Notes: generated from the sequence alone by a model not told the origin. Numbered from the stretch's first letter, positions 6,072 to 49,312 are shown. The stretch: DNA of 49,864 nt from Solirubrobacterales bacterium (GCA_035549645.1 DASZQM010000209.1:1-49864); one strand, 5' to 3'. Numbers and translations: made by a program.

Positions 6072-6088
6072 GAGCCTATACTGCCGAC

Positions 6089-29025: not shown

Positions 29026-29067
29026 TGGAGCTAGGCGGATTCGAACCGCCGACCTCCTGGGTGCGAT
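29026..29067 (-). repeat. attL-type partial tRNA-Ala copy (3' 42 nt, anticodon loop to discriminator)
   Basis: 42/42 nt identical to 43724-43765, checked base by base. Identity stops on both sides. Confidence 0.9.
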
Positions 29068-31564: not shown

Positions 31565-31635
31565 GATACGAGAGCGCTGCCGCGTTTCGCAGGAGCATGA
31601 GCTCAGCGCCTTAGGTAGGGGTAGGATTCCGCCTA

Positions 31636-32302: not shown

Positions 32303-33241
32303 GTGCGTTACCGTCTCTCACTGCCGGAAAGCAATGGCGCCGAGGCAGTGCGTGGCTTCATCGACGATTGGATCGAGCAGCCAGCCCTGCGGCGGATCGT
32401 AGAGGCCGAGGGTGGGCAATGGCCATTAGGCTCACTTGAGCAGAGGGTCGATGCGCTACATGACTTCAGCGCTCGCTGGGACTTCCGTGGCGGCGTCGAG
32501 CGATTGGAGATCAACCCTTCCTCTAGTCAGGACCGCGACGAGAACCTGCTCACGGACGCGGCCGAGTTGGGAATGACGGCTGCCGATCGTCCGACTGACG
32601 ACCGATATGACCACGCGCTTGTCCTTGGGGGTACCGCCTTGGCCAGCGTCTACCGTCTGCGGCGGCTTTACGAACTGCGAGAGGACGGACTCGACATAGG
32701 CCGGACGGCAGTGCTGACCGCCCTGCGTGAAATCGGCGAGCCAGAGCTGCGGATCGTTCGCGAACGCCCCGAGATCGCAGCGGTCGTTGACCGTTCGCCG
32801 CGCACGGAGTTCGAAGTGATGACGCATTCGGTTGAGTTGTTCAGCGGATCTAGTTCTGAGGTGGAGCGCACGCCGAACGAAAACCCCCACCTGGCGTCGG
32901 CGATGGCGCGGCTCGGCGACGTGCTCGTGCTCGCCGCACCGTCAGCCGATCCTGGTCGCCGCGCGAATAGCCGTGATAACTACGACGCTTACATTGGCCA
33001 GATTGGCCCAGTGGATTCGGTTCTTGTCGTGACCAGCAGCATCTATCTGCCGTATCAGTTTTTCGTGGCCTTGCAAGCCCTTGGTTGGGAGCAGCCTCGC
33101 ACCATCGAGGCTGTCGGTTTCCCGCCCGAATGGATGCAAGGAATCCTTACTGGCCCTCAGAACATCCTTCAGGAGATCCGCAGCGCCCTTTTCGGAGCGC
33201 GCAACACACTGCAAGTACTGGCGGCCTCCGAGCCCAGGTAG
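32303..33241 (+). CDS. Hypothetical protein
   Basis: Protein-like composition over 312 aa. No family recognised with confidence. Confidence 0.5.
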   Translation: MRYRLSLPESNGAEAVRGFIDDWIEQPALRRIVEAEGGQWPLGSLEQRVDALHDFSARWDFRGGVERLEINPSSSQDRDENLLTDAAELGMTAADRPTDDRYDHALVLGGTALASVYRLRRLYELREDGLDIGRTAVLTALREIGEPELRIVRERPEIAAVVDRSPRTEFEVMTHSVELFSGSSSEVERTPNENPHLASAMARLGDVLVLAAPSADPGRRANSRDNYDAYIGQIGPVDSVLVVTSSIYLPYQFFVALQALGWEQPRTIEAVGFPPEWMQGILTGPQNILQEIRSALFGARNTLQVLAASEPR

Positions 33242-33243
33242 GT

Positions 33244-33960
33244 CTACCGACGCAAGCGGCGCTCGGCACCCCGTACCTTTCGCCGCAGCTTCCACTCGCC
33301 GTACCGTGCTCTCAACCCTATCGAGTTCGGCTCGTTCGCGAAACCGCCGTGCGTGCTTACCCCACTTCCGTCGGTGTGCAAGAGCACAAGGCGAGCCTCA
33401 CCATCTCTTCGAGCTGCCGGGCGCTTGAGGGAGAGCTCGCGCCCCCGGTGCTTCGGATGGTGCAGATGGTAGGAGATGCTGGCGTTGTAGAGGTCGACGA
33501 GACGGTAGCCAAAGCGGGCCTGCGGGCGCCCCTTTACCGGAGCATTTTCCCGCTCGAGGTATGGCAACAGAAGCGTTCCTACCCTGACGAAAATAGTGTG
33601 GTACTGCTGTAGCGCGCTGCGCAGTGCCAAGCCGTCAACGACGTATTGCGCTACGTCGTTCATTGCGCCGACCACGACCCTCGCATCGCGCTTTTGCTCG
33701 GCGCTCAGTTCGTCGAGCTCCTTCCACGTATCGAAATCGTCGTGTCCCGCCTGGGGTGCCAGCTGTTCCACCACGGATACGTGAATGGGAAAGCTCATCT
33801 GCAATCGGCTTCGTGCCTCCTGGGAGCGCACAAACGCCGCCTGAAATTGGATCGTCGCCTGCGCACGGGAGGCAGCGGTAGCAGCGCGCAGCTGCAAAAT
33901 GACGAATCCCACCCCGATCGCCGCGATCACGGCACTTGCGATCCCCATCCAGTCAGCCAT
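33244..33960 (-). CDS. Hypothetical membrane-anchored protein (one N-terminal TM helix)
   Basis: WMGIASAVIAAIGVGFVILQL looks like a TM helix, followed by a soluble domain. It lies 9 nt downstream of the SIR2-TPR gene on the same strand. Confidence 0.55.
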   Translation of the reverse strand: MADWMGIASAVIAAIGVGFVILQLRAATAASRAQATIQFQAAFVRSQEARSRLQMSFPIHVSVVEQLAPQAGHDDFDTWKELDELSAEQKRDARVVVGAMNDVAQYVVDGLALRSALQQYHTIFVRVGTLLLPYLERENAPVKGRPQARFGYRLVDLYNASISYHLHHPKHRGRELSLKRPAARRDGEARLVLLHTDGSGVSTHGGFANEPNSIGLRARYGEWKLRRKVRGAERRLRR

Positions 33961-33969
33961 CCTCGGAGC

Positions 33970-36093
33970 TCACGTCGTCATCATCCATAGAACGCGGGGC
34001 TCACCGAGCCCGGCTGGCGGATATTGGCTGTTGTTGCGGAGTTCGGATGGCAGTGCGGTCCAGGCCGGGATTGCATGTGCATCGCCGCTCAGGCCCAGGC
34101 CAATAGCGGCCTGAGCGCCAAGCCAGTGCGCCCCCCTTTCCGCAGCGAGGCGAGCGAGCTCCGCGAAACGATCACTTGCGCCAGCATTGCCGCGGAGACG
34201 ATCAAGCTCTGCGAGGCCGAGGTCGGCCCACGCGCTGGCGACCGGGCACGACGGGTTGTCGGCGACGCGACGCAGAAGCCGCTCGGCGTCATCGTGTTCG
34301 TTGCGCGCGAGGTAGACATCGGCGAGCACGAGCGCACGGTCGTCGAAGTAGCGCCCACCGAGCTCCTCCGCGTCTGAGAGATCTACGCTTGGGGAGGCTT
34401 CCTGACCGATCGCGAGCCTCACGCGGTCAGCAAGTACTCGGCCCGTGACCACGTCGGCGATCGGACCTGGCCGGCCCTCCTGCTCGAACCTGCGCATAGC
34501 GCTGTCCAATGCGTCGCGAGCGGCGTCCGGATTACGTTCGTAGCAGAGAGCGATGCCATCGAGCCAGAACCCCCAGGCCCGCCAGCGCGGTATCGCATAC
34601 CGTCCGGTTCGCTGACGGAGCTCGAACGCGTAACGGCGAGCGTCACCGAACCTCCCCTGGTAGATAGACGAACAGCCCTGATCGAGTACGGCACCTGCGT
34701 GGCGCTCGGGATCGCCGGCTGCCGAGAGTCCGGCCTCGGCAGCGTCTGCGGCCCGACGCGCTTCATCAATGCATAGCTTGTAGCGATGGCCATAGGCGAG
34801 GTAGTAGTAGTCCGTCGGTGCACCTCGGTGCTCTACTGCCCAGCGGGCGAATTCCTCCACACGGTCCCAGTTGCGTTGCTGCAGCCTCAACGCCAGCGCG
34901 CCCGTGATCAGGTAGTCACGCGCGGCTCGTGGCCGGAGGCCGTTGAGAACGCTGCGGTGGTCGGCGAGCCCTTCAACGAGCTCGGCGATGTGTCCATCGC
35001 CATAGAGGCTTCGGTTCATTGCCCAGCGGATGTGTGCTGGTAGAGAACGCACGCGCAGGTGAGCCGCGTCAGCCCGTCGCGCCGTTCTCAGGGCTGACTC
35101 ATCGGCTTGCCACTCGCCGAAGCGCTCGACCAGGCGCGCGTGAACGATCGCGGGTGGCGTTGGAATTGGCAGACGAACGTCCAGCGGAGGTCGATCGCCT
35201 TCCAGCATTTCGTCCGCGAGGCCGGGGTCGGGTGCGACCCCGGCGTCGGCGGCGAGCGTAAGGAATGCCTTCGCCGTCACTTGCCGCGGGTCCTCTGGGT
35301 CCTCAGTTCGCGGGGGAGGTACGAACGTGATCGTCGATTGAGGGAACGCTCTTTCGATTTCGCGCCGCACATCGCAGTACGGCTCGAACCAGAGGATCTG
35401 CTTCGCCGCGGCAAAGGTCTCCTCAAGGAGGCGGTAGAGGTCGGCATCAGCGCCGCGATATCCGAAGACGACCACGATTGCGCCTGCCGTGATGCTCACG
35501 AGATGGCGGATCGCATCGTTCGTGATGGGCGCCAGCAGCTCCGCGTCCGTGAATGCGAGCGTGCGCGGGTCCTCTGCGGTCCCGTGAAACTTCACGAGGC
35601 TCGCCGGTCTCGCGGAACTCAAGGGGGGGAGCACGCTTGGGCCGATGCGCCGAGCACTTCGAGACGGCACAGCTCGACCCGCACGTCGCGGCGGCTCGCC
35701 GCTCGCCGCCTCTACGCCGAGGTCGACGTTCGTCGTCCACACGGTGCCGCCGCACGCGAGAACGCGCGCCGCGACGTCGTGCACAGCGTTCGCCTCCGAG
35801 CGGCCGAGCGCAGCAGCCACCTGATCTGCAAAGGCGACGCCGAAGCGGCGCAGCGTGCCGAAGAGCACCTCAGCAGGAATCTCGGGCTCGGCAAAGCTGG
35901 GGTAACCCGACCGGCACCACCGGCCGTCGACTGGCTGCCAGCCGATGCTCCTGAGGATCCCCGCAAAGAGCTCGCTGAAGTTAGGAAGTCGGCTCGGCGG
36001 AGCCATCGACGCACCAGCGCCGAGAAAAAGCAGCCAGCGCGACGCTGGAGCGGACGCTAGCCGATCGTCGTGCGTGTTCACGATCAGCCCCAT
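33970..36093 (-). CDS. SIR2-like (SIR2_2 type) NAD-utilising domain fused to C-terminal TPR-like repeats
   Basis: Motifs LLFLGAGASMAPPSRLPNFSEL (GAGxS), VWTTNVDLG (TNxD) and LVKFHGT (catalytic His). The C-terminal ~400 aa are helical repeats rich in A/L/R with TPR-like periodicity. Confidence 0.75.
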   Translation of the reverse strand: MGLIVNTHDDRLASAPASRWLLFLGAGASMAPPSRLPNFSELFAGILRSIGWQPVDGRWCRSGYPSFAEPEIPAEVLFGTLRRFGVAFADQVAAALGRSEANAVHDVAARVLACGGTVWTTNVDLGVEAASGEPPRRAGRAVPSRSARRIGPSVLPPLSSARPASLVKFHGTAEDPRTLAFTDAELLAPITNDAIRHLVSITAGAIVVVFGYRGADADLYRLLEETFAAAKQILWFEPYCDVRREIERAFPQSTITFVPPPRTEDPEDPRQVTAKAFLTLAADAGVAPDPGLADEMLEGDRPPLDVRLPIPTPPAIVHARLVERFGEWQADESALRTARRADAAHLRVRSLPAHIRWAMNRSLYGDGHIAELVEGLADHRSVLNGLRPRAARDYLITGALALRLQQRNWDRVEEFARWAVEHRGAPTDYYYLAYGHRYKLCIDEARRAADAAEAGLSAAGDPERHAGAVLDQGCSSIYQGRFGDARRYAFELRQRTGRYAIPRWRAWGFWLDGIALCYERNPDAARDALDSAMRRFEQEGRPGPIADVVTGRVLADRVRLAIGQEASPSVDLSDAEELGGRYFDDRALVLADVYLARNEHDDAERLLRRVADNPSCPVASAWADLGLAELDRLRGNAGASDRFAELARLAAERGAHWLGAQAAIGLGLSGDAHAIPAWTALPSELRNNSQYPPAGLGEPRVLWMMTT

Positions 36094-36926: not shown

Positions 36927-37324
36927 CGCGGAAATCAGACCAGACCGAACCGTCGGTTGCTCGCCAGTCGAATCTAAAAGTTTCGTTACCGGAATACACG
37001 GCGATTAGCGCGGATGCGCGGCGATTACGTAAGGCGCCGTAGGGCGACTTGACTTCTCCTGGTCAGCGGAGCTACTCCAGGGGTATGAAGATCTCGCACG
37101 CTGTTTCCCGAGTCCCCGTGCGGTGGAGACCACGGCCCGCGCACCTCCCGATGCGCCGAGGCGGACGGTCGCCGCTGCGTCCATCCCTTCGACCAAGACT
37201 GCGTTCGTCGCTTCGTCCAACCCTTCAGCTCGAAACGGGGCCGGACCGCCGTGAACGCCGATGGCAGCGCCGTTTCCCGGCTTGGCGTTTTGCCGACATC
37301 TCTACGCTGCATCTAGGTCGGGAC

Positions 37325-38425
37325 ATGAAGTGCAATCTCGCCACCTCGACCCTGCTCTCGATCGTTCCCGCCTCGTCGCTCGCGCCCTTCGCTCTCGGCG
37401 CCGTCGCTATCGCCTCCGCGCTGGCTACGCAGCGGCTCGATCCCGCAACGGCGCGCAGCGACCGGCATGGCCGGCGCTCGCGTGGCCATACCGGTGCGCG
37501 GACCGATCGCCCCGCCGAGAAGGAGGGTCGCCACCCGGCGCCAAGCGCCGCCGTCGGCCTGCCGGAGGCGACCGCCGAGATCATCGCCTCGCTGGGCGAG
37601 CATCGCGTCCTCTCCACCGAGCAGGTGAGGACGATCCATCTGCCGGGCCGCAGCCTGCGGCGCACGCAGCAGATCCTCGCCGGCATCGAGGAGGCCGGGC
37701 TGATCCACCACGTCGACACGCGGATCGCGCCACGACGGCTCTGGTTCGTCAGCGAGCGCGGTGCCGCGCTGGCCTTCGAGCTGGTCGGGTTGGAGACGCA
37801 GCCGAGGGTGCTCCAGGCCACCGATGCGGCCGGACCGCTGAGGGCGCACACCCTCGCCGTCAACGACGCCGCGATCTGCTTCCTGAAGGCGGCGCGCGAG
37901 CGCGGCGACGAATTCGGCCCGTTCTCCTGGCGCCAAGAGATCGCCCACCCCATGGGCCGCGGTCGCGGTCGTCGTCGCCGCACGCTCTTCGCAGACGCCG
38001 TCCTCACCTACCTGCGACCCGAGGACCGCGACACGGTCCTCGAGCTGCGCTTCCTTGAGCTTGACCGCGCCACGCTCTCGGTCGATCGCCTCGTTGCGGA
38101 GCTGAGTCGCTATGCCCAGCTCTACCGGGCCACCGACGCGGAAGGACAGCCGCTCTGGCGCAATCGCTATCCGGTCTTCCCGAGGGTTCTCTGCGTGCTG
38201 ACCGGCGCCTCCCGGGAAGCGCTGACCACGCGGCGCACATTCGCGTCGATGCTCCTGCGCGACCACCCGGCAATGGCGCAGGCGCGCGGCGAGGTGGCGG
38301 TCAGCTTCTGCCGCCTCGAAGACCTGCAGCGAAAGGGGCCGTTCGCGCCGATCTTCCGCGAAGTGCTCGACCCCAAACGCTCGGTTGACTGGCTCGGCAA
38401 CTCGCCCGACGACGAGGAGCGGTAG
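37325..38425 (+). CDS. Replication-relaxation family protein
   Basis: LGEHRVLSTEQVRTIHLPGRSLRRTQQILAGIEEAGLIHHV (wHTH), HTLAVNDAAICF and LELDRATLS are typical of the Replic_Relax family. The ATG at 37325 was chosen because the upstream part of the track ORF is Arg/Pro-rich junk. Confidence 0.65.
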   Translation: MKCNLATSTLLSIVPASSLAPFALGAVAIASALATQRLDPATARSDRHGRRSRGHTGARTDRPAEKEGRHPAPSAAVGLPEATAEIIASLGEHRVLSTEQVRTIHLPGRSLRRTQQILAGIEEAGLIHHVDTRIAPRRLWFVSERGAALAFELVGLETQPRVLQATDAAGPLRAHTLAVNDAAICFLKAARERGDEFGPFSWRQEIAHPMGRGRGRRRRTLFADAVLTYLRPEDRDTVLELRFLELDRATLSVDRLVAELSRYAQLYRATDAEGQPLWRNRYPVFPRVLCVLTGASREALTTRRTFASMLLRDHPAMAQARGEVAVSFCRLEDLQRKGPFAPIFREVLDPKRSVDWLGNSPDDEER

Positions 38426-38644
38426 GCATGCGTCCCGGGCCAGCTGGCTCGCTTCCTGGGCGCAGCGGAGCTATCTTCGTCGGACAGGAAACAGACGGCC
38501 GGGCGGCGCGCAAACGCCCCCGGCCCGGCGTCGAAGGTTCGAGCTTCGGCGCGATGTCCAGCCTAGAGGCGAGCGGATCTCCGCCGCCACTTGGCGACCG
38601 CGCCTGCCACTCCTTCGGTGCTCACGGACCAGGAGGTGACAGAA

Positions 38645-39943
38645 GTGGCTCGTAGATCGGAAGGCCAGGTGGTTGAGCGCCACTGGAAGAGCGGGCGCGG
38701 TTACGCACTGCGCTTCCGCGCCTACGGGGAGCGCCAGTACCTGACGCTGGGTTCGGAGACCGAGGGCTGGAACCGCAACCGCGCCGAGGAGGAGCTGGCG
38801 AACGTCATGGCCGACGTGCGGCGCGGCATTTGGGTCCCCCCGACGCGGCGACCTCGCAGAGCCAGGGCAGCGGAGGAGGCATCCGGCACGATGCCGACCT
38901 TCGGCTCCTTTGCCCGGAGCCTGATGGCGGCCCGCAGGAGCGAGATGAGCGAGGCGAACTACGCCTACAAGGAGAACGCGCTCGCGCACGTCGTGCCCTA
39001 CTTCGGGAGCTGGCCACTTCACGAGATCGACATCCAGGCGGTCGATGCCTTCCGCGGCCACATGGTCGAGGTCTCCGAGGCCCGGCGCCGCGCGAGGGAG
39101 AGCGGCCAGTCGATGCGCAATGGCTGGGGACAGGCGCTGCGGCCTCTCTCGCCGGCGACGATCAACAAGACGATCGACACCTTGCAGTGGGTGCTCTCGG
39201 TGGCGGTGGAGTACCGATACATCACCGAGAACCCCGCGGCTGGCCGCCGACGCCGCCTCAGGGCGATGAGGCCCGCTCCGGTGCATCTGGACTCGGTCGA
39301 GCAGATCGCGACGCTGCTGGAGGCGGCGGGCCAACTCGACCGCGACAAGCGCTGGCTCACGAACGATCGCCGGCCGATCATCGCCACGCTGCTCCTCGCC
39401 GGACCTCGGGCAGGCGAGCTGTGCAACCTGCGCTGGCGCGACGTCGACCTCGCCAACGGCCGCATCTCGATCGGCCGCTCCAAGACCCAGGCCGGACTAC
39501 GGGAGATCGTCCTGCTGCCCCTCTTGCGTGACGAACTCTCCGCTCACAAGGCGTGCGCCTACCGCAGCGGCGCTGACGATCCGGTGTTCCCCACCGGGAC
39601 CGGCGGCTACCGCGACAAGGACAACCTCCGCAACCGCATCCTCGCCTCGGCCGTTAAGCGGGCCGACGAGCTGCTCGAAGAGCGCGGCCATACGCCGCTG
39701 CCACGGGGAGTCACGCCGCACAAGCTGCGCCATACCTTCGCCTCGATCCTGATCGCCACCGGCGAGGACCCGGCCTCGGTGATGGCCCAGCTTGGCCACA
39801 CCGACCCGAAGTTCACCCTGCGCGTCTACACGCACATCATGCGCCGCGACCCGGCCGAGCGGGCGCGACTGAAGGCACTGGTCGGCGGCGATTCGATCGA
39901 GTTGGCGGAGCTGGCGACGCCTGAGCGAGACGTGCGACGATGA
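38645..39943 (+). CDS. int: Tyrosine-type site-specific integrase
   Basis: Motifs LAGPRAGELCNLRW (Arg I), HKLRHTFASIL (HxxR) and LGHTDPKFTLRVYTH (catalytic Tyr). The GTG at 38645 is preceded by AGGAGG (38631-38636). Confidence 0.9.
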   Translation: MARRSEGQVVERHWKSGRGYALRFRAYGERQYLTLGSETEGWNRNRAEEELANVMADVRRGIWVPPTRRPRRARAAEEASGTMPTFGSFARSLMAARRSEMSEANYAYKENALAHVVPYFGSWPLHEIDIQAVDAFRGHMVEVSEARRRARESGQSMRNGWGQALRPLSPATINKTIDTLQWVLSVAVEYRYITENPAAGRRRRLRAMRPAPVHLDSVEQIATLLEAAGQLDRDKRWLTNDRRPIIATLLLAGPRAGELCNLRWRDVDLANGRISIGRSKTQAGLREIVLLPLLRDELSAHKACAYRSGADDPVFPTGTGGYRDKDNLRNRILASAVKRADELLEERGHTPLPRGVTPHKLRHTFASILIATGEDPASVMAQLGHTDPKFTLRVYTHIMRRDPAERARLKALVGGDSIELAELATPERDVRR

Positions 39944-40003: not shown

Positions 40004-40258
40004 ATGAAAGTTGAGCGTCAGGAAGATGTGGAAAATGTCCCAGCCGATGAATTGCTGCTCGGAGCATCTACCTGGAACCCGAAAGAGAGTTCGCTGAAGT
40101 ACGCATGGCCAGACAAGAACGGCAAGCGCGCCCGCGGTGGTGAGGTACCCATAACCGCGGTGCCACAGGCAGTCTTGTTTGCGGGGCGTGAGGGATATTT
40201 GACGCGCGAGGCAATGGCGCGAATCATCAAAGGACTGACTGACGTACTAGCAGGCTAG
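40004..40258 (+). CDS. Small hypothetical protein (84 aa)
   Basis: ATG preceded by GGGAGGA. Lower-G+C codon usage. Convergent with the PNP gene. Confidence 0.45.
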   Translation: MKVERQEDVENVPADELLLGASTWNPKESSLKYAWPDKNGKRARGGEVPITAVPQAVLFAGREGYLTREAMARIIKGLTDVLAG

Positions 40259-40302
40259 GCGGCCATCGCCGACCACATCCTGATCGAGTGCGTGCGCGTG
40301 TG

Positions 40303-41457
40303 TCAGTCGTTGAGGTCGTCTGGTTGATAACAGTTGAGCAACTCGAAAGCGAAGGCGGCTGCGTTGGCGGCGGCAATCTTCGGTGCCCCAGCCTTTCGGG
40401 CGTCGTCCTTGTCGTGACAGAGGTCTGAGATTCCGCGAACAACAATGCCTGCGACCTTCTCGCTTTGATCGAGGGCAGCGAGGAAGCCGTGGCCCTCCAT
40501 CTCCACTGCAACGGCCTTGTCGAGGTTCTTGCGTAGGCGCTCATAGACAGTCGAGTCACTATCGCGAATCAGCTTTTCGCCTGCCGCGATGGGCTCGACG
40601 ACAACATCCGGTGGCTGGCCGTTGATCCGCTCCGCGGAGCTTCGTTGGCGCCAGGCATTCCCCAGGGCGACGTGGTGCGCTTGTTGGCGCAGCGAATGGG
40701 CGGCACCAGCGGATTTCTGGCGCTGCTGGAACTCAGCGCGTTCCACCCCCCACTCGTAGTTATAGATCTCGGTTGCCGCAACAACATCCCCCCACTTCAT
40801 GCCCTGCTCAGAAAGGCCGCCGGCGATTCCCACGAAGAGGGCGACGGAAGGCTCGAAGCGAGCGATCGCGCGCTCTGCCGCCGCGGCGGCGTTGCCGCCC
40901 CCCGCTTCGGTGATGGCAGCGGCGATCCGCCAGTCGACGTGATGTCCGCGGAAGCTGCCGGTCTTGTAAATCGTGCCCGACTCCCGCTCGTCGCTTACGT
41001 CCTTGAGATGGGTAATGACTGCCGCGAGCTCCAGGGGCAAGGCCGTGAGGATGACGGCAGAGATGGTGGGAGGGTTTGGATTCGCCTCGGCAAGGCCGCG
41101 GGCGGTCATTCTGAAGCGCCGTGCAGGTTTCCATTGATCGAGACGCTCGAATTCAGCACTGCAACCCTTGCAATCAATCGACTCCTCGGCCTCAAGTTCA
41201 GCCTCGGCGGTTTCGCGGAGGAGCGCCAACCCACATGACGGGCAACAGAGGACTTCCTCCGCGGCGAGAAAATCGAATTGTGGATCGGCGGCCAGGTCGA
41301 GTAGGCGCTGCGCCCGTGAAGCATCAATTTCAGCGATATCAGCGACCTGCTTGGCGTCGAACCGATCGTCGGAGCCGCGCCGATAGAGATACGAGATGAA
41401 AGACGTGACGGTGTCAACGCCCTGAACGGCCGCTTGCTCAGCAAAGGCGTCGAACAT
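40303..41457 (-). CDS. Zn-ribbon plus PNP_UDP_1 (purine nucleoside phosphorylase / nucleosidase superfamily) protein, a candidate immune effector
   Basis: N-terminal CCPSCG...CKGC (CxxC...CxxC). The C-terminal domain has FVGIAGGLS, VAVEMEGHGF and VRGISD motifs, typical of MTA/SAH-nucleosidase-like folds. Confidence 0.75.
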   Translation of the reverse strand: MFDAFAEQAAVQGVDTVTSFISYLYRRGSDDRFDAKQVADIAEIDASRAQRLLDLAADPQFDFLAAEEVLCCPSCGLALLRETAEAELEAEESIDCKGCSAEFERLDQWKPARRFRMTARGLAEANPNPPTISAVILTALPLELAAVITHLKDVSDERESGTIYKTGSFRGHHVDWRIAAAITEAGGGNAAAAAERAIARFEPSVALFVGIAGGLSEQGMKWGDVVAATEIYNYEWGVERAEFQQRQKSAGAAHSLRQQAHHVALGNAWRQRSSAERINGQPPDVVVEPIAAGEKLIRDSDSTVYERLRKNLDKAVAVEMEGHGFLAALDQSEKVAGIVVRGISDLCHDKDDARKAGAPKIAAANAAAFAFELLNCYQPDDLND

Positions 41458-42487
41458 TGCGCAAAACGTATTCGACCGACTGGCGGTCGCTGGGAGCCAT
41501 GAAATGGATGCGTGAGTCGCCAGCGAGGATGACCGTGTGCAGCTCGTCCTCTAGGGGGTTGCCTCCGTCGGAAATTCGGGTCTGATCCAGCCAGAAAACG
41601 TTGCCGAGACGGCCACGGCTGACCTTCGCGAGCGAGTTGACCGCTTCATCAACCGCCTTCTCTCCCGCCGCGGCGGTATGCGCATCTGCGCTCGAAACGT
41701 CAATCTCGCGCCCGCCAGCGCTCTGCATTCCGACCCTGATCGAGCGAGTGAGTGCGCCGTTGCCGTCGCGCTCTTTCTGGGCGAGAGCTTGGATGGCTTT
41801 GCGCAGATCGAGCCGAGTAAAGGAGCCCTTGAAGCCGAGCCAGTCCTGAATCAGCTCACCGAAGCGCCCCTCCGCCAACTCATAGTCGTAACCGCGATGG
41901 GCTTTAGAGATGTGAAGGGTCGCCTGAGAGTTAGTGAGGTCCCAGCGCAAGGTGAAAAGACCACGTCCGGTACGGCGGGTGTAGGCGTGGTACTCAACCG
42001 GCGTGCCATCGATTTCGCCCTCGTGATCGTAATCGGGGACCCGCTCGGTGTACCCACGCGACTCCACTGCACGGATCTCGACTGAATCGTCAGCAACAAC
42101 GATTGTTGCGAGGGTCAGCTCCGGAGGGATGATCAGCTGTGGAGGTTCGTCGAGAATGTCGCCCAAGCCAGCCTGCCTGAGACGTTTACTGACCTTGGCT
42201 TTGTCACGCCACGCTGCAGTGACTTCGTCGGCAATGTCATAGAGATACACGTGTTGGTTGCCCCACGGCTCGACCTCATCGAGATACGCGGCGATATCGG
42301 CAGCGGTTACGTCTTCGTCGCGAGCAGCCTCGTTGAGACGGCGTCGAAGCTCCCGCTTTGGGCCAGAGCGGGGAAGCTCGAGGCGACGGAGCAACTCGCG
42401 AATACGGTCGCTGCGTAGCGAGAGCAGATAGTCAATTAGCTCGCGAAGATCGTCTGGCAATTTTTGAGGCACAGCTCCTACCCCCAC
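41438..42487 (-). CDS. SAP-motif N-terminal domain protein with a C-terminal domain of unknown function
   Basis: IRELLRRLELPRSGPKRELRRRLNEA fits the SAP helix-extended-helix motif. The rest matches nothing I recognise. It overlaps the downstream PNP gene by 20 nt. An AT-rich promoter-like region lies upstream at 42490-42560. Confidence 0.6.
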   Translation of the reverse strand: MGVGAVPQKLPDDLRELIDYLLSLRSDRIRELLRRLELPRSGPKRELRRRLNEAARDEDVTAADIAAYLDEVEPWGNQHVYLYDIADEVTAAWRDKAKVSKRLRQAGLGDILDEPPQLIIPPELTLATIVVADDSVEIRAVESRGYTERVPDYDHEGEIDGTPVEYHAYTRRTGRGLFTLRWDLTNSQATLHISKAHRGYDYELAEGRFGELIQDWLGFKGSFTRLDLRKAIQALAQKERDGNGALTRSIRVGMQSAGGREIDVSSADAHTAAAGEKAVDEAVNSLAKVSRGRLGNVFWLDQTRISDGGNPLEDELHTVILAGDSRIHFMAPSDRQSVEYVLRNVRRLC

Positions 42488-42637
42488 CTGGCTTCCGAGG
42501 AAACAACTAGTTGCTAAACGGAAATAGTTTAGGGCCTAATTAAAAACGTACTTATCTAAATCGATGCCCAGGCCCGGATTGCTCGAACATTGGGGCGCTG
42601 TTGGCATGCGCTGTCTCATCACGTTTGCCTCCGCCAT

Positions 42638-42744
42638 GCATCTGCCGTTTCTCGAGGGCCGAGGCAGGTGTCGAGACGCCCAACCAGCGGACGCTTCGCA
42701 CCTCCCTGTGGCCTGCGCCTCGGCCCTCGAGAAACGGCAGATGC
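42638..42744. repeat. Perfect 27-bp inverted repeat with a 53-nt spacer
   Basis: 42638-42664 GCATCTGCCGTTTCTCGAGGGCCGAGG is the exact reverse complement of 42718-42744 CCTCGGCCCTCGAGAAACGGCAGATGC. Confidence 0.9.
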
Positions 42745-42754
42745 GACTGGCTGG

Positions 42755-42994
42755 TCATTTCGGCTTCCCGTCCTTGAGGACGTAGGCGCGCGGGCGTTTC
42801 TTGGCTTGGCGGATCTTTCTGTCCTTCGCGAGGCGGACGAGACAGTTGGCGATGGCGCCGGCCGAGTGTTCGATGCCCTTGCCGATCGCGCTGGCCGTCA
42901 GCGGGCCGTCGTCTGTGCGCTTGCGCATGTAAGCGAGCACCTGGCCATCCAGCTCTCCGGGGCGAAGGCGCTTTCCCTTCTGGGCCGCGCTCAT
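42755..42994 (-). CDS. Small winged-helix DNA-binding protein
   Basis: LDGQVLAYMRKRTDDGPLTASAIGKGIEHSAGAIANCLVRLAKDRKI has a MarR/wHTH-like pattern. The ATG at 42994 overlaps the upstream gene stop (ATGA). Confidence 0.5.
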   Translation of the reverse strand: MSAAQKGKRLRPGELDGQVLAYMRKRTDDGPLTASAIGKGIEHSAGAIANCLVRLAKDRKIRQAKKRPRAYVLKDGKPK

Positions 42995-43401
42995 GGCGAT
43001 TCGCCCTTCTGGGGGTCGAGATCGACGAGAATTTTCGCGCAAGCGTCGTGCCCGATCTGAAAGCGATCGTCGGTCCTGGCGTCTTCTTCGCTTGCCTCGC
43101 GCTCGGTGCCCGACTCGACCAGGACTTTGTCTGCTTCGGCGTGGAGACGCCGAAGCAGTTCGGTCAGGTCGAGTGGCGGCATGGTCAGCTCGAAGCTCTT
43201 GCGATCATTGTCTGCGGCCCAGCCGATGTCCGCCAGCAGGCGGAAGTCTTCTCCGAACTCCAGGGCGAGGCACTCAGCGGTGGCGTAGTCCCTACTCCGC
43301 CCGAACGCGGTCCACAGGGCGTCGATGCTGTAGAGGTGGTGGCGGACCAGTTCGTAGAGGCCGTCGCGCTGGTCTTTGGTGATCGTTGCCGTGACGGGCA
43401 T
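42991..43401 (-). CDS. Hypothetical protein (136 aa)
   Basis: The ATG at 43401 is preceded by AGGAGG 5 nt upstream on the minus strand. Acidic helical protein with no family recognised. Confidence 0.5.
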   Translation of the reverse strand: MPVTATITKDQRDGLYELVRHHLYSIDALWTAFGRSRDYATAECLALEFGEDFRLLADIGWAADNDRKSFELTMPPLDLTELLRRLHAEADKVLVESGTEREASEEDARTDDRFQIGHDACAKILVDLDPQKGESP

Positions 43402-43723
43402 GCGCCCTCCTTTCGGTAGGGCACCGAAGAGCCGCCGCGATGCCTCGCCGGAGTACTCCGGCGAGTAGCGTTCTCTGCGCATCGAAGGCGTGTACTTCGG
43501 TGCCGGCCCCGGGGCGTTACAGCGCCGCCGGGGCGTTCTTATGTGCTCGCCGACCGTAGCTCCGCTCGCCCACGAAAGCGAGTCCGAATCGGCGTGAATC
43601 GCCGCTAATCCCCGCGCATCGCCCCGTTTTCAGGCACTCGTGCCCGAAACTGAGCACCGCTGGCGCTGACCGTAGCGCCCCGGCACCAACCGGAACCCGC
43701 CCACGTGCAGGGACTTCAAATCA

Positions 43724-43796
43724 TGGAGCTAGGCGGATTCGAACCGCCGACCTCCTGGGTGCGATCCAAGTGCTCTGCCAACTGAGCTATAGCCCC
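43724..43796 (-). tRNA. tRNA-Ala (anticodon CGC)
   Basis: Folded by hand from GGGGCTATAGCTCAGTTGGCAGAGCACTTGGATCGCACCCAGGAGGTCGGCGGTTCGAATCCGCCTAGCTCCA. It has a 7-bp acceptor stem with the G3:U70 Ala identity pair, anticodon loop AT-CGC-AC and a GGTTCGAATCC T-arm. No encoded CCA. Confidence 0.9.
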
Positions 43797-43881: not shown

Positions 43882-43968
43882 GCGATGTGATCCGTGTCGG
43901 GAACTTCTGGTGAGAAGTTCCCGAAATCGAGGAGGCCGGTTCAAGATGACCGACCTCCTGGATGCAAT
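43882..43968 (+). repeat. Repeat R1: ~87-nt element with a 9-bp hairpin and a degenerate tRNA-3'-half-like segment
   Basis: Aligns with 45844-45931 with about a dozen mismatches and one 1-nt indel. Hairpin GGGAACTTC-TGGTGA-GAAGTTCCC at 43899-43922. The tail CCGACCTCCTGGATGCAAT resembles the tRNA-Ala segment CCGACCTCCTGGGTGCGAT. Confidence 0.75.
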
Positions 43969-44009: not shown

Positions 44010-45264
44010 GTGACGAGGAACAGCGGGCAGCTCAGCGTCAGACTCTCCGAGGGCGACGGCGCCAGTGGAAGAGCGTGCTGCGGTATCCCCGAGGACCGTT
44101 TCCCGGAGGCGTTGGCCGAAACGATCTACGAGATCGAGACGACTCCTTTTCCGCCCGCCGCGTGCGTGAACGGCTTGCTTCTCGCAACTGGGGCCGGCCT
44201 CTCCGACGAGGGGAAGGTGATCGTCGAAGTGTTCGCCGAGTATGGCTCGGCCCACCTTCCCGGTTACTCGGCGGCGCTCGAGTTGATCGAGACCCACGAC
44301 TCGGCGAGGGACACTGCGATCGCACTCGCCGAATCGATCGCTGCGGGCACTGCTGCTCTCTGCGTGGGCCGAGCTTCCCAACAGCTGGCCCGAGCTGGCG
44401 AGGCAGGCGGCAGCCGCCATCGCCACCTCGCTCGAGGACGAGGCCGGACCCGAGGATCATCTGACGCCGAAGGACCGCGGATGTCTGGCGCGCTGGGCGA
44501 GCGCCGGCGACCAGGCAAAGATCGCCAGCGACCTCGTGGACCTCCTCATATCTCCGGGAGAGATCGGGGTACACCGCTACGAAGCCGCGAAGGGCCTGGG
44601 CGCCTTGGCGAAAGGGATCGACGAGGAGCTCGCAGCCGACGTCCTCGACCGGCTCGTCGCCGGACGGGACGGAATCGGCACCGCCTCGACGGTCGTCGAG
44701 CGCGGATCGGACCTCAACCCGGCCTTTGCACGAACGCTCCTGCGGACGCCGGCTGAAGAGGACCATGTCGTGGCGATGGCTCTACGGGCTGAGGTGGAGT
44801 TGGCGGCACGCACGGGGCGGCTTGCCGAGATCCGCCCGGCTGTCGAGGCGGGCATCGCCGAGGAGGCGGTGGAGATCCGCGCGATGGCTCTCGACTGTGC
44901 CATCGCCCATCGCGACCTTCTTGACGTCGATCTCCGGGCTTCGGTGACCGACGCAGACCCGACGATCCGGGCGCTGGCGCTCAAAGGTCTCGCGGATCGC
45001 GGCGAGGTGAAGGCCGAAGATCCGGCGCTGCTTGCGGCGGCGGGGGCCTCGGAACCGCTGGGGATCAGGTCCGCCGCGATGCGCATCGCCAGAGCCGATT
45101 GCGAGGACCATCGGGAGATACTCGAGATACTTGCCCGAGACCCCAATGTGTTCGTCCGGGCGGCCGCGCGCACCGCCCTGCGAGGGGCTCCAGCCGTCGT
45201 AGATGAGGCTGATCCTGGGCGACAAGAGGCCCGGCAGGTGGTAGAGCCGATGGACGCCCGTTGA
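44010..45264 (+). pseudogene. HEAT/PBS-lyase-like repeat protein with an apparent frameshift near 44340-44360
   Basis: Frame 0 is protein-like up to ...AIALAESIAAG, then becomes Arg/Gly junk. Frame 1 is protein-like from ~44341 (LLLSAWAELPNSWPELARQAAAAIATSLEDE...) and has no start codon before 44536. Downstream HEAT-like repeats include DPTIRALALKGLADRG and DPNVFVRAAARTAL. Confidence 0.55.
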
Positions 45265-46022
45265 GGTCCTTCCTCCGACCCGGGACCGCTCGCTGGCGGC
45301 GGCGCGGGGAAGCCGAGCTGATCGCGGTGCGCTCGCGGTTCGGTGAGCTCGACGAACGCTGCTCGCCGGGTCGCGTGCACGAGGTCCATCTGGAGTTGCT
45401 CGGCGCTTTCGGCCGCAGCATCGGCTTTGACTTCTTCGGGAGGACGCCGATCGAGCCGCCGGAGCAGGAGTCGACCTACGTCTTCGGGCGCTTTGACCGG
45501 CGGGCCCGCGATCGCGAGTTCGGGCTCCACCTCACCGCGGAGCGGTCGGCAGGTTCCCCGACGATGCGGATCGCCCGCCTGATCGACCTCTACCTGCCTG
45601 AGCCGAGCCGCCGTCAGGGGGCGGGAACAAGATTGATGGACGTCCTGCTGGAACTGTGGGAGCGGATCGGGATCGAGGAAGTCAGGGCGACGACCGTCGG
45701 CGACGGTCAGTGGGCGTTCCCGTCGTGGGGTTTCGAGCCCGACCCGGTCCGCCCTCCCGACAGCGGACTCTTGCCGCTGCGCCTGCGGCTGCCGAGGAAG
45801 GCGCTGAGGGTCGACGGAAAGCACGGCGAGGCGCAGGCCGGGAGCGATGTGATCCGAGTCGGGAACTTCAGGCGAGAAGTTCCCGAAATCGCGGAGGACG
45901 GTTCAAGATCGCCGACCTCCCTGGGCGCAATCCCGACGATGAGTCCGATTATGCACGTCTGGGCGACTGCCCCAGTGGAGCCGACCCAAGAGGCCGGTTC
46001 CTCGCCCGGTCGACGGCTCTAA
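45261..46022 (+). CDS. GNAT-like acetyltransferase; the 3' end is uncertain because it runs through repeat R2
   Basis: RRQGAGTRLMDVLLELWERIGIEEV...WGFEP resembles GNAT motif A (Q/RxxGxG/A). The TTG start overlaps the upstream stop. Confidence 0.45.
   Translation: MRSFLRPGTARWRRRGEAELIAVRSRFGELDERCSPGRVHEVHLELLGAFGRSIGFDFFGRTPIEPPEQESTYVFGRFDRRARDREFGLHLTAERSAGSPTMRIARLIDLYLPEPSRRQGAGTRLMDVLLELWERIGIEEVRATTVGDGQWAFPSWGFEPDPVRPPDSGLLPLRLRLPRKALRVDGKHGEAQAGSDVIRVGNFRREVPEIAEDGSRSPTSLGAIPTMSPIMHVWATAPVEPTQEAGSSPGRRL
45844..45931 (+). repeat. Repeat R2: second copy of the ~87-nt hairpin element
   Basis: Hairpin GGGAACTTC-AGGCGA-GAAGTTCCC at 45861-45884. The stem is identical to R1 but the loop differs. 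Confidence 0.75.
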
Positions 46023-46180
46023 CGCTCCCCAGTCGGCGCATGGTGCCTCAGAATAGGGCGGTGAATCTCAGGCCAAGCAGTCTGAACCTGTCGTCCACCG
46101 GCCTGATCAGCCGACAGCGGTTCGAGGCCTTCTCCACCGCACGCCGGGACGCGGGTCGGCGGATTCGTCGAAGCCTTGGC

Positions 46181-49100
46181 ATGTCAGGACCCGCCGTCGT
46201 GCCTCCCGCCGAGGATTTGAGGCATAACCTCCTGCGCCTTGGTCCCGACGGAGAACGGGCCGAGCGTTTTCTTTGCGAGGCTGCTCGGCAACTGACGCGC
46301 AGGGGAGAGATGCAGGGCGAGGTCGTCGCCTATCTCTTGCGGGAGGCCTTGGGCGCACTGCTCAAACTCGGCGGCGAGAAGCCCTTCGATCTGAAGCAGA
46401 GCGCGCAGCGCGTCGTCACGGCGTCGAAGCTGCCCGAGGAGGACGGTGGATCGCGGAACGATCTGGAGCGTGTCATCGGCGAACTTGAGCGGGCGCTGGG
46501 GAACCCCAACGAGGCGCGCCTCGAAGACGCCGTCAGGATCATCAGCAGGCGCAGGCCGCTCCGCGGCGACGCCGACCTTCTCGATGCTTATTTGGACCGA
46601 CTGGAAGAGGCCAACAACGGACTCCACGACCGGATTGGCCGCGGGCGCGCTGTCCACCTTTACGAGGGAACGATCGACGTGGTCGCCTCGCTCTTCGGGC
46701 CGCTCGTCTCGCGACTGGCAAGCATTGACGCCCTTCTTGCGATCGACTCCCCTTCCGCCGACGATGCGAGGCGGCTGCTCTCGCAGGTTGGCGACGATCG
46801 CCACCTCCTCTACTTCTTCGAAAAAGTGGAAGGGCCGGGTTGGTTCCAAGCCCTTCGTGAGAGCGCAATCCTTCACGCTCCCGCCGAGGGCGGCTGGCCG
46901 GCCGGCCCCTATCTGCAGCGATTGCTTCCGGATCACCCCGATCTCGTCCGGGAATGGCTGATCGAACGCGCCTCTGAAGACCTAAACACGAATCAGGCCT
47001 TCTTCCTACTGCGGATCGCGACGGGGCTGAAGGGAGATGTCGCCGATCTCATCGCCGACCTGGCCCAAGGACACCTGGATTCGCCGCAGGTCGAGATCTT
47101 GGTGGAGAACTACCTCAGAGACCTCTCGGATCGGGAGATCCGCGCCGGTGGTCTGCAGCGTCTAGTGATCGAGTCCCTTAAGGGGGCCCTCGGCGGGGAT
47201 CGCCAGGCGGGTCACTTCCTGCTTGCCGCGCGCATTCTGGACGTCGCCGAACGAGGCCTCGCGATTGACCCGGAAGGGTGGCTTCCGGTCTTCGTCTACC
47301 GTCTTCGCGAACTCGCTGAGAATGAGTCGACGCTGCGCCTGCAGACGATTCGACCGCTCGCCGAGCTCCGTGTCGACTCTCGCAGCCGCTCGGCATTGGA
47401 GTTGATGTGCGGGGCTGTCCGAGCGGCCGCAGCGGGCGCGTCGGCCGCCGGGATGTCGGACGAGAAAGTGAGCTTCTGGCTCGGCAAGCTGAGGGAGCCG
47501 CTGCGTGACAGGCTTCTAGCCCGCTGGCTTCGCGAGCGCGAGAACCTCGCACTCGCGTCCCGGCTCCTGCCGGAATGGATCGCCGCTGAGGTGCGCCCCA
47601 GTCCCGAGCAGCTTGACCTGTTGCGCTGGGTCTTCGAGCAGGGAGGCTCCTCGTTCGCGGAGGGTGTCCGCGAAGCTCTCGGCCCAGCTCCCGAGACCGA
47701 GGAGATTGATGGACTCTCTGCCGACGAGACGCTCCCCGACCACCTTCGTCGACCTCACAACTGGCTGGTTGCGATCCCGGAAGCCGAGCGCGGCCGGTGG
47801 GGGGGCGCCGATCGTCTTCTGGACGAGCGCTTCGGCGCGGCGTCGGAGGACGGTGTCCTATTCCGCGTGGGGCCAGCGAGATTCGCGGGGGCCCAGAGCC
47901 CCATCTCGGTCGAGGAGCTCGCCGCCGTCTCGCCGCTCGAGGCGGCCCGCCGCATCAACGCTTGGAAGGAGCCTCCGGAACGCTCCTTCCTGGCTCCGTC
48001 GGCGGCGGGACTAGCGGATGCAATCGGCGATGTGGTCGAGAAAAACAAGGCGGCATGGCTGGACGCCGATCCCCGTCAGATCGTCGACGCCTTGGTGGGG
48101 CCTCGCTTCATCGCCTCCTATCTCGGAGCCGTCGAGAAAGCACTCGACGACCTAAGCGAGGAACGGGTGGGTCAGATCGTTGAGACGGTCGCCGGGATCC
48201 AGGCTCATGCGGCGGCGGCCCGAAGTGAGGAAGTCGAGGACACCGACGACTGGACCTACGCCTCCCATCTCGGTATCCGCCTGATCGGCGCCCTGGCCGA
48301 TCGGGGTCGGCTGGCGGACGACGACTTCGAGCTCGCCTGGGAGACGGTTCTCGCGGCGGTGGGGGAGAGAGGGCCGGAATCCGGGGCCGAGGGCGATGTT
48401 CTCTCCAGGGCGATCAACCGACCGTGGAGCTCGGCGCTGGAGGCCGCCTTTAGTCTCGGTGGCATGGGGGACGGTGTCGATCGACGTCTCCTCGACCTGG
48501 TCGACGACCTGCTGCTATTGCCCCGCCCGGCTGGCGAACTTGCCAGGGCGATCATCGCCACCCGAATCCCCTGGCTCCGCCACATCGACGCAGACTGGTT
48601 CTCGGGTGCCGAAGAAGGTTTGCTCGGCGCCTCGGCACCCGAAGGCCTCGGCGATCTGACCTTCGCCACCTACCTTGAGTGGGGCCGCCCAACCACCGAG
48701 CTGCTTCATGACCAGCACGACCGCATCGCCGCCGCACTCGTCGGAGACACCGCCGAGTTCGCACTGCGGCACGTTATTCACGGTCTGTTCTGGGAGTTGC
48801 CCGGCTACGCCGCGGCCGACGTCTGCGATCTACTGGCGGACAAGCCCGAGCTCTTCTCCGAAGCGGCAAGGTCGCTCGCCCTGGCGCTGACCGAAGACGA
48901 TGAGAATTCGTCTGGACCGCCCGCGGGCCCGGCACTCGCGCTCTGGCGCGAGGCGCTCGCGGCCGGGCTTCCCGCCGATGCGTATGCCGGTTGGGGCTCG
49001 TTTGCGTTTGCCGACAGGGTCGACGACCGCGACTGGCTCGAGCTGACGCTCCGTACCGCGGCTGTCCCATCGGTCAATCTCGTCGAGCCCGATCAGATCG

Positions 49101-49312
49101 CTGAGAGAGCCGAGAGGATGGCTACCGACGAGCAGGCCCTCGAACTAGTTGCGTTTCTCCTTGGGGCGGACCCGAAGGCTTGGGAGCTCGAACGCATCGG
49201 TGCGGTGGGACTTCGCCTCCTACGCAGCGGCACCGGATCTCCTGCGGTGCGCGGGGAGCTACGCGAGCGTCTGCTCGAGCGCGGATTCAATGAGGCGACT
49301 GAGATCGACTAA
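46181..49312 (+). CDS. Large (~1040 aa) all-helical repeat protein, function unknown
   Basis: Long protein-like ORF rich in Leu/Ala/Glu/Arg helices. The upstream part of the track ORF (45656-46180) crosses R2 and the GNAT-like gene and is junk. An alternative ATG exists at 46040. Confidence 0.6.
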   Translation: MSGPAVVPPAEDLRHNLLRLGPDGERAERFLCEAARQLTRRGEMQGEVVAYLLREALGALLKLGGEKPFDLKQSAQRVVTASKLPEEDGGSRNDLERVIGELERALGNPNEARLEDAVRIISRRRPLRGDADLLDAYLDRLEEANNGLHDRIGRGRAVHLYEGTIDVVASLFGPLVSRLASIDALLAIDSPSADDARRLLSQVGDDRHLLYFFEKVEGPGWFQALRESAILHAPAEGGWPAGPYLQRLLPDHPDLVREWLIERASEDLNTNQAFFLLRIATGLKGDVADLIADLAQGHLDSPQVEILVENYLRDLSDREIRAGGLQRLVIESLKGALGGDRQAGHFLLAARILDVAERGLAIDPEGWLPVFVYRLRELAENESTLRLQTIRPLAELRVDSRSRSALELMCGAVRAAAAGASAAGMSDEKVSFWLGKLREPLRDRLLARWLRERENLALASRLLPEWIAAEVRPSPEQLDLLRWVFEQGGSSFAEGVREALGPAPETEEIDGLSADETLPDHLRRPHNWLVAIPEAERGRWGGADRLLDERFGAASEDGVLFRVGPARFAGAQSPISVEELAAVSPLEAARRINAWKEPPERSFLAPSAAGLADAIGDVVEKNKAAWLDADPRQIVDALVGPRFIASYLGAVEKALDDLSEERVGQIVETVAGIQAHAAAARSEEVEDTDDWTYASHLGIRLIGALADRGRLADDDFELAWETVLAAVGERGPESGAEGDVLSRAINRPWSSALEAAFSLGGMGDGVDRRLLDLVDDLLLLPRPAGELARAIIATRIPWLRHIDADWFSGAEEGLLGASAPEGLGDLTFATYLEWGRPTTELLHDQHDRIAAALVGDTAEFALRHVIHGLFWELPGYAAADVCDLLADKPELFSEAARSLALALTEDDENSSGPPAGPALALWREALAAGLPADAYAGWGSFAFADRVDDRDWLELTLRTAAVPSVNLVEPDQIAERAERMATDEQALELVAFLLGADPKAWELERIGAVGLRLLRSGTGSPAVRGELRERLLERGFNEATEID

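Follow-up and report, generated by a model that had tools for sequence, protein, structure and literature searches.

The window analysed here is a 49,864-nucleotide stretch of DNA from a Solirubrobacterales bacterium (GCA_035549645.1, DASZQM010000209.1:1-49864). Next to the integrase of an integrated island it carries two overlapping minus-strand genes, referred to below as A and B. With somewhat better than even confidence, we propose that this pair constitutes an undescribed, horizontally mobile two-gene module of the abortive-infection type, with protein A as putative sensor and protein B, a nucleosidase, as putative effector. The evidence lies in the domain identities of the two proteins, the intact catalytic residues of B, the strict coupling of A to the N-terminal domain of B, the interchange of outputs behind that domain and a mobile, defence-rich context, all of which are direct observations. 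An initial annotation of the window had put the pair forward as a candidate anti-phage system; on computational criteria this proposal is supported, as the genes are conserved neighbours and the PNP domain of B is not of the housekeeping kind.

Organization of the A-B gene pair

The features of the pair are as follows.

41438..42487, minus strand: gene A, 349 aa from the first GTG; SAP-like motif and RdgC/CENP-N-like body; proposed sensor
42326..42421, minus strand: SAP-like helix-loop-helix motif of A, residues 23-54; Pfam SAP match below threshold; helices at 26-35 and 44-56 in the model
41441..42310, minus strand: body of A, residues ~60-349; predicted RdgC / CENP-N / Iml3-type alpha/beta fold
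40303..41457, minus strand: gene B, 384 aa; winged-helix and Zn-ribbon domain fused to a PNP nucleosidase; proposed effector
41068..41457, minus strand: putative coupling domain at the N-terminus of B, residues 1-130, with a winged-helix-like helical unit ahead of a CxxC...CxxC Zn ribbon
41161-41244, minus strand: Zn ribbon of B, residues 72-99; C72, C75, C96, C99
40306..41067, minus strand: nucleosidase domain of B with PNP/MTAN fold, residues 131-384; E143, E319-M320-E321 and S344-D345 as catalytic residues
42473..42565, minus strand: AT-rich leader and putative promoter region of the A-B operon; G+C 0.31-0.37; conserved with loci L054 and L055

Both open reading frames (ORFs) are found exactly where the initial annotation had placed them, and they overlap by 20 nt. 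Because close homologues of A are 344 aa long and the upstream DNA is conserved, the true start of A is probably the GTG at 42472, giving a protein of 344 aa; immediately 5' of this codon, within the leader, lies a purine-rich AGGTGGGGGTAGGAG stretch. The lower G+C content previously ascribed to the pair is evident at two levels. The segment 40004-42560 (0.601, versus 0.671 for the whole window) is the minimum among all 2557-nt windows of the sequence, and third-codon-position G+C amounts to 0.67-0.70 in A and B versus 0.82-0.95 in the surrounding core genes.

The region 42490-42560, which had been described as an AT-rich promoter, is indeed AT-rich, with a G+C of ~0.37, and the 71-nt windows richest in A+T of the entire 49.8 kb fall within it. 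Its role as a promoter is plausible; a scan for the sigma-70 consensus upstream of A yielded no promoter match in this leader. About 85 nt of the leader are near-identical in L054 and L055, the similarity ends at ~42565 and the DNA farther upstream is unrelated, indicating that the leader or promoter travels with the pair. A terminator-like site reported by the same scan inside the A-B junction is weak and was judged not meaningful, and an Rfam scan of the operon region returned a tRNA only, besides spurious miRNA matches.

The source of these miRNA matches is a perfect 28-bp inverted repeat (42638-42665 / 42717-42744, with a 51-nt spacer), located between a small gene at 42755-43042 and the leader of A, for which folding as RNA gives -90.5 kcal/mol (z = -10.5). 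The repeat is not conserved in L054 or L055, which places it beyond the limits of the cassette. A terminator or insulator function is one possibility, a scar left by recombination or insertion another.

Protein B is a probable immune-clade nucleosidase behind a putative coupling domain

Residues 135-370 of B match Pfam PNP_UDP_1 (E 1.2e-19), with the motifs GIAGG at residue 210, VEMEG at 318 and RGISD at 341. Upstream of this domain, the four cysteines of the Zn ribbon are invariant or nearly so among 45 homologues. The description of B as an intact PNP_UDP_1 fold behind a zinc ribbon is thus accurate. In line with this, an AlphaFold2 model of B (predicted local distance difference test, pLDDT, 90) matches structures of methylthioadenosine/S-adenosylhomocysteine (MTA/SAH) nucleosidases (MTAN) in Foldseek, with TM-scores of 0.81-0.86 on the target. 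E143, E319-M320-E321 and S344-D345 of B align to E12, E172-M173-E174 and S196-D197 of MtnN; in the 45 homologues these active-site residues are invariant or at least 90% conserved, E143, E321 and D345 being invariant. Variants of the N-domain give weak Pfam matches to HTH_Crp_2, MarR and Zn-ribbon families.

Membership of a housekeeping MtnN or DeoD clade had been named beforehand as grounds for abandoning the anti-phage proposal. B falls well short of such membership. Its scores against the NCBIfam equivalog models lie far under their cut-offs (NF004079, MtnN, 76.8 versus 169 bits; TIGR03664, 55.1 versus 124.7; TIGR01704, 39.1 versus 73.8), and its PNP domain shares 26% identity (32 bits) with E. 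coli MtnN versus 43-48% (166-200 bits) with PNPs fused to NB-ARC, NACHT, TPR, TIR-SEFIR, EAD1, FGE-sulfatase and GUN4 domains. PADLOC matches B to the CBASS 'PN-superfamily' effector (8e-21) and to PDC-M60C (1.2e-16), in both cases through the PNP domain only; PHROGs has no family for B. Pairwise identities and profile scores thus place the PNP domain of B in what appears to be the immune (Cap17/DtcC-like) clade.

PNPs of the Cap17 clade cleave ATP and dATP and are enriched beside defence systems, and NLR-, TIR-, TPR-, EAD- and FGE-sulfatase-type fusions have been described for this clade (Rousset et al. 2023, 10.1101/2023.01.24.525353). In Table S4 of the same study, the Cap17 clade includes a gene of Solirubrobacter soli for which no defensive context is given. 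This entry fits the view that B-like genes have been seen earlier and yet not been assigned to a system.

Protein A represents an unannotated family with a predicted RdgC-like fold

A word-indexed homology search with A retrieved 8 and then 29 relatives, all annotated as hypothetical and without a Pfam domain. An exhaustive profile search of 1.84 billion representatives enlarged the family to 755 clusters at E<=1e-3, of which 160 at E<=1e-30 (clusters counted at 50% identity), and nearly all members measure 330-360 aa. A thus belongs to a sizeable, uniform and unannotated family. It has no family in Pfam, PADLOC, NCBIfam or PHROGs; the family profile gives only noise (E ~1) against PDB sequences, and tblastn of A against INPHARED (50,697 phage records) and PLSDB plasmids gives no real match.

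The initial annotation had seen a SAP motif in this protein and had called the rest unrecognisable. The motif is present, if weak: A of the window matches Pfam SAP with E 0.0046 and 17 bits, under the gathering score of 23.9 bits. SAP is matched by 9 of 27 family members (best E 4.8e-4) and SAP_new25 by 3 of the 27; the score of P0243 against SAP is 23.5 bits. As for the body, it is unrecognisable by sequence profile, whereas the AlphaFold2 model (pLDDT 84, predicted TM-score 0.82) does have structural neighbours. All seven Foldseek matches in the PDB with E<1e-3 are E. coli RdgC (2owl, 2owy) or CENP-N: RdgC 2owl is found at E 1e-5 and CENP-N as 6eqt, 7bxt and 6c0w, with probability 1.0 and TM-scores of 0.27-0.43, while Iml3 appears lower down. 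In BFVD, the named top matches are phage RdgC-like proteins, with TM-scores that reach 0.44 for the query and 0.52 for the target. Provisionally, we therefore assign to the body of A a predicted DNA-binding fold of the RdgC / CENP-N / RexA type. The evidence for this link is predicted structure, because profile-profile comparison with RexA and RdgC gave no signal.

Conservation and mobility of the pair

Loci were collected through gene look-ups (L001-L010 and L050-L055) and from species-representative genomes (L011-L014), metagenomes (L015-L031) and IMG/VR (L032-L046; the 'viral' label of these contigs is IMG/VR's own). The scan of species-representative genomes, made with a narrow derived peptide pattern, gave four loci, all from Solirubrobacterales metagenome-assembled genomes. 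In most loci, neighbouring genes were called with a purpose-made G+C-frame heuristic.

According to hidden Markov models of A and B, a gene matching the N-domain of B within its first 110-135 residues follows A in 39 distinct loci and in the window. It had been reasoned that the proposal should be dropped if the genes were not neighbours elsewhere; they are adjacent or overlapping in every related locus with enough sequence, apart from L015, where the pair is disrupted. Four further fetched contigs end ahead of the second gene. The overlap usually measures 20-35 nt, and one protein, P0160, reads as a fusion of A and B.

The genes surrounding the pair vary by locus and include integrases, TrwC relaxases, insertion sequence genes, XRE regulators, PIN, Abi_C, a DUF2326/MC6 set and SMODS. 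The sole recurrent extra partner is a DUF4231 membrane protein, encoded in 10 of the 25 loci of the PNP type, usually directly upstream. Neither a DUF4231 gene nor another membrane gene adjoins the pair in the window, and no PADLOC model matches DUF4231 or the viral variants of B (B').

Among individual loci, L001 carries near the pair a gene set at 5744-8472 with DUF2326, MC6 and faint HNH_2 matches, which we read as ABC-3C-like. Within a few kb of the pair, Abi_C is found in L003 (2834-4042) and SMODS in L005 (1-662).

In the window, a perfect 42-nt direct repeat (29026-29067 / 43724-43765) bounds a 14.7-kb element integrated at a tRNA-Ala gene. The pair lies inside this island and adjoins its integrase, as the initial annotation had stated. 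The relevant features are listed here.

29026..29067: left att copy, 42-nt perfect repeat of the 3' end of tRNA-Ala
43724..43796, minus strand: tRNA-Ala(CGC); its 3' 42 nt (43724-43765) form the right att copy
38591..39943, plus strand: tyrosine integrase, Pfam Phage_integrase 1.5e-19; context only, with a syntenic integrase in L055
40004..40258, plus strand: small convergent ORF of 84 aa, without a Pfam, PADLOC or NCBIfam match

The integrase is placed 3.8 kb inside the right end of the island and not at its edge.

Whether the small gene at 40004..40258 belongs to the pair had been left undecided. The ORF is genuine: a syntenic copy with 87% identity occurs in L055 and another copy in L054, and it follows the integrase in near-identical islands. 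No homologue occurs beside the more distant copies of the pair in the other fetched loci, and it is therefore not a core component. The small ORFs at 42564-42785, 42755-43042 and 42991-43482 were rejected as components on the same grounds.

The output behind the N-domain of B is exchanged

Behind the N-domain of B lies a PNP in 25 loci and a CHAT protease in L052; in 12 loci its place is taken by Rrf2/MarR winged helix-turn-helix (wHTH) or unknown domains. These 12 are the 11 distinct IMG/VR loci and L051, in all of which the N-domain is kept and the PNP is replaced by a winged helix of the Rrf2/MarR type or by unknown helical domains. In L052, where the N-domain is fused to the CHAT protease, A carries an N-terminal EEP nuclease/phosphatase domain of its own. 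As the N-domain alone is kept when the C-terminal output changes, it is the constant partner of A, with the C-terminus of B as an interchangeable output, as in modular immune systems. A more remote arrangement is found in L050, where a distant A (22% identity) is followed by a short protein, a protein that, read from its sequence, appears to be alpha/beta-hydrolase-like with a C-terminal hydrophobic tail, and a DEAD/MZB helicase.

The IMG/VR variants adjoin genes for large serine recombinases and DUF2924 proteins, genes resembling those for extracytoplasmic function (ECF) sigma factors, and a phage-type helicase. In three loci (L033, 1728-4097; L034, 5459-7879; L038, 1800-4328), the gene for an S24 LexA/cI-like repressor overlaps the start of A, so that a repressor-A-B' operon is formed beside a large serine integrase. 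This operon has the same layout as cI-rexA-rexB of phage lambda.

Comparison with known systems

Immune ATP nucleosidases of the Cap17/DtcC type, known from the cyclic oligonucleotide-based antiphage signalling system (CBASS), Detocs, Avs and short pAgo systems, share with B the PNP_UDP_1/MTAN fold with the intact Glu, Glu and Asp residues. The likeness extends to the nearest PNPs of B, which are fused to NLR, TPR, FGE-sulfatase, TIR and EAD domains, and to the location in a mobile island with defence-type genes. In contrast to these systems, the pair has no CD-NTase or SAVED protein, histidine kinase, receiver domain, NTPase or Argonaute; the partner is instead the uncharacterised ~345-aa protein A, and the effector carries a wHTH and Zn-ribbon N-domain.

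Assignment to CBASS was rejected, as no CD-NTase (SMODS) or SAVED match was obtained in A, B or their neighbours in the window with Pfam, PADLOC or NCBIfam. Detocs was likewise rejected in the absence of HisKA, HATPase or Response_reg matches. The pair does share with Detocs a PNP effector with a swappable output domain, and the hydrolase-like protein of L050 may parallel the alternative output of that system. As the pair lacks a sensor kinase, a receiver domain and a buffer protein, however, signal transfer cannot be a phosphorelay. For PDC-M60, a candidate system of PADLOC, only the C model was matched, via the PNP domain of B, while A and every other gene of the window that was tested match no component, and the match reflects no more than this common effector domain; the one paper found to mention PDC-M60 surveys the Bacillus cereus group. 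Nor does A fit a type II toxin-antitoxin system, having no recognised antitoxin family and, at ~345 aa, not being a small antitoxin.

RexA is one half of the Rex exclusion system. Its crystal structure is reported to have RdgC, Iml3 and Chl4 as relatives, and RexA, like three homologues from actinophages, to bind DNA non-specifically as a dimer (Adams et al. 2024, PMC11077077). Lambda RexAB and the actinophage Rex-like systems (Sbash gp30/31, CarolAnn gp43/44; PMC11077077) likewise form two-gene, exclusion-type cassettes. Their first protein has the RdgC/Iml3/Chl4-type fold, which A has by prediction, the link to RexA being made via Adams et al. (2024). The small DUF4231 membrane protein is an optional partner of the PNP-type pairs. 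On the other hand, the partner of A is a soluble nucleosidase and not the RexB membrane protein, and A has an additional SAP-like N-terminus. The pair was rejected as RexAB proper for lack of sequence similarity between A and RexA (hhalign probability 0.4% for the A family against lambda RexA), of a RexA PHROG match and of a RexB-like polytopic membrane partner in the window. The Rex-like proteins of actinophages were not among the sequences that BLAST found with lambda RexA as query.

RdgC, a ring-forming DNA-binding protein associated with recombination, and phage RdgC-like proteins are the best structural matches of the A model in the PDB and BFVD, and they resemble A in length and in their two- or three-domain alpha/beta architecture. 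They show no profile similarity to A, which differs by its SAP-like extension and by its place in a mobile two-gene effector cassette.

The initial annotation did not recognise the pairing as a named system, and this holds: A matches no PADLOC model, and the features of RexAB, CBASS, Detocs and PDC-M60 are missing. Literature searches (RdgC/RexA with PNP, SAP with nucleoside phosphorylase, DUF4231 with defence, and PDC-M60) also turned up no description of the pair. The effector class, by the comparisons made here the immune PNP clade, is known, while the proposed sensor family, its adaptor domain and the pairing are new relative to PADLOC 2.0, Pfam, NCBIfam and PHROGs.

Proposed mechanism and alternative explanations

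We propose that A, through its SAP-like DNA-binding motif and its RdgC / CENP-N / RexA-type body, would act as a sensor for DNA of a phage, for an intermediate of replication or recombination, or for a complex of phage protein and DNA. Detection would release or assemble B through a presumed contact between the two proteins. As the one portion of B that invariably accompanies A, the winged-helix and Zn-ribbon domain would most likely link B either to A or to the same DNA as A, or to both. The nucleosidase would then cleave the N-glycosidic bond of ATP, dATP or a related adenine nucleotide, and the depletion of the nucleotide pool would abort the infection and thereby confer protection.

Several observations weigh against this proposal. 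The SAP motif of A in the window scores under the Pfam cut-off. The structural matches of the A model have low TM-scores (0.27-0.44 on the query) and root-mean-square deviations of 8-12 Å, although the low scores may reflect a hinged multi-domain protein; RexA is absent among the 50 PDB matches listed for the model, and in hhalign the profile of the A family reaches a probability below 1% with both lambda RexA and E. coli RdgC. For B, the MtnN equivalog model scores the protein about as high as the CBASS PN model does (76.8 versus 72.1 bits). The loci were retrieved by narrow peptide patterns and are biased to relatives in soil Actinomycetota. Finally, the wHTH variants occur in prophage immunity regions without an obvious toxin, and A with the N-domain may be a general signal-to-output device and not one reserved for defence.

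This last observation leads to a different explanation, in which A and the N-domain would sense a state of the DNA, such as damage or intermediates of replication or excision, and steer the decisions of a prophage or integrative element, as RexA does for the lambda switch, the PNP form being derived. In L051 and in each of the 11 distinct IMG/VR loci the output is a wHTH or another domain that is not a PNP, and the neighbours of these variants are serine integrases, DUF2924, S24 repressors and ECF-sigma-like genes, including the three repressor-A-B' operons. RexA is also able to bias the lambda switch independently of RexB, and the pair of the window adjoins the integrase of its island. It speaks against such a regulator that the output domain of B in the window is not a transcription factor but a nucleosidase of the immune clade, intact and conserved in its catalytic residues, that PNP and CHAT outputs are cell-damaging effectors, and that some loci of the PNP type are found away from integrases. 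We regard it as quite unlikely. Another, unlikely though to be taken seriously, is that the pair is a toxin-antitoxin or addiction module, with B as toxin and A as DNA-binding, autoregulating antitoxin, in which stabilisation of the element would be the main function and phage defence a side effect. The overlapping genes with the putative antitoxin gene first, the compact conserved leader, the DNA-binding motif on A and the constant position on or beside mobile elements would all suit such a module, as would the toxicity of this PNP clade when expressed alone (Rousset et al. 2023). However, A is of uniform length at ~345 aa, is conserved far above typical antitoxins and is sometimes fused to its own EEP domain, and no toxin-antitoxin family model matches it, ParD at E 0.071 being treated as noise. 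Moreover, the same combination of A and N-domain occurs with non-toxic wHTH outputs, which neutralisation of a toxin leaves unexplained.

The interchange of the output domain with a CHAT protease also argues against B being a housekeeping salvage nucleosidase of the MtnN/futalosine hydrolase type that happens to have a regulator as neighbour. MTA/SAH nucleosidases are the best solved-structure matches of B, and NCBIfam gives sub-threshold matches to MtnN and futalosine hydrolase. Yet all equivalog scores remain far below their cut-offs, the identity to E. coli MtnN is much lower than that to NLR-, TIR- and EAD-fused PNPs, and the enzyme is fused to a wHTH and Zn-ribbon domain inside a low-G+C integrated island. 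This explanation is strongly disfavoured, and we consider it extremely improbable. An abortive-infection-type module thus remains the explanation that we favour for the pair in the window.

Beyond the pair itself, A could be the founding member of a large, unannotated sensor family with an RdgC/RexA clamp fold, driving nucleosidase, CHAT, possibly hydrolase, or transcription-factor outputs via the adaptor. We advance this wider idea tentatively, as one that is more doubtful than not.

Other features of the island and its flank

Besides A, B and two small ORFs, the island contains the following cargo.

SEC-C/TPR protein
30261-30836, minus strand: AbiEi-like gene, PADLOC AbiEi match
30967-31614, plus strand: AbiEi-like gene, PADLOC AbiEi match
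33970-36093, minus strand: SIR2_2-TPR protein, 707 aa
36172-36926, minus strand: PIN module, PIN_3 toxin with an upstream 109-aa partner, toxin-antitoxin-like
37049-38425, plus strand: Replic_Relax protein (relaxase-like)

The two AbiEi-like antitoxin/regulator genes are divergent, with PADLOC AbiEi matches of 1e-56 and 2e-50, and no recognisable AbiEii toxin was called adjoining them. A 312-aa protein encoded at 32303-33241 has no family match. After the SIR2_2-TPR protein comes a 238-aa protein that matches DUF4760 weakly, the two spanning 33244-36093 on the minus strand. Neither is matched by PADLOC, and together they may represent a second uncharacterised, NAD-depleting defence gene of the island. 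The PIN module and the Replic_Relax protein suggest that the island is or was mobilisable.

To the right of the tRNA gene, a HEAT-repeat protein and a 1218-aa protein without a family match are encoded at 44536-49312 on the plus strand. Their third-position G+C of 0.74-0.76 is below that of the core genes, and this flank may also be foreign DNA. A 77-nt repeat is present just right of the tRNA gene in two copies that are 91% identical (43882-43958 and 45844-45920). Each copy contains a hairpin, TCGGGAACTTC-loop-GAAGTTCCCGA, then GGAGG, followed by ATG in the first copy and ATC in the second. The repeat matches no Rfam family and may be a common 5' leader or regulatory element of two genes.

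Implications

If the proposed function is correct, the pair would add a new sensor family to bacterial immunity and provide another context for an ATP-nucleosidase effector whose conservation extends from bacteria to animals. Interchangeable behind a single adaptor, the PNP, CHAT and transcription-factor outputs would amount to a natural experiment in the rewiring of an immune sensor, and in uncultured soil Actinomycetota they would help to find further effectors.

What triggers Rex exclusion, and how it works, has been disputed for decades. A link to Rex is suggested by the RdgC/RexA-type fold predicted for A and by the cI-rexA-rexB-like layout of the prophage variants, and the pair, as a soluble sensor with a soluble enzyme, could give a simpler model of it. 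Should the wider family exist as outlined, it would form a 'Rex-like' immune and regulatory superfamily in which one sensor of DNA state would serve two ends, death of the infected cell or the throwing of a prophage switch, and the question of what lambda RexA senses would gain a tractable, soluble two-protein system.

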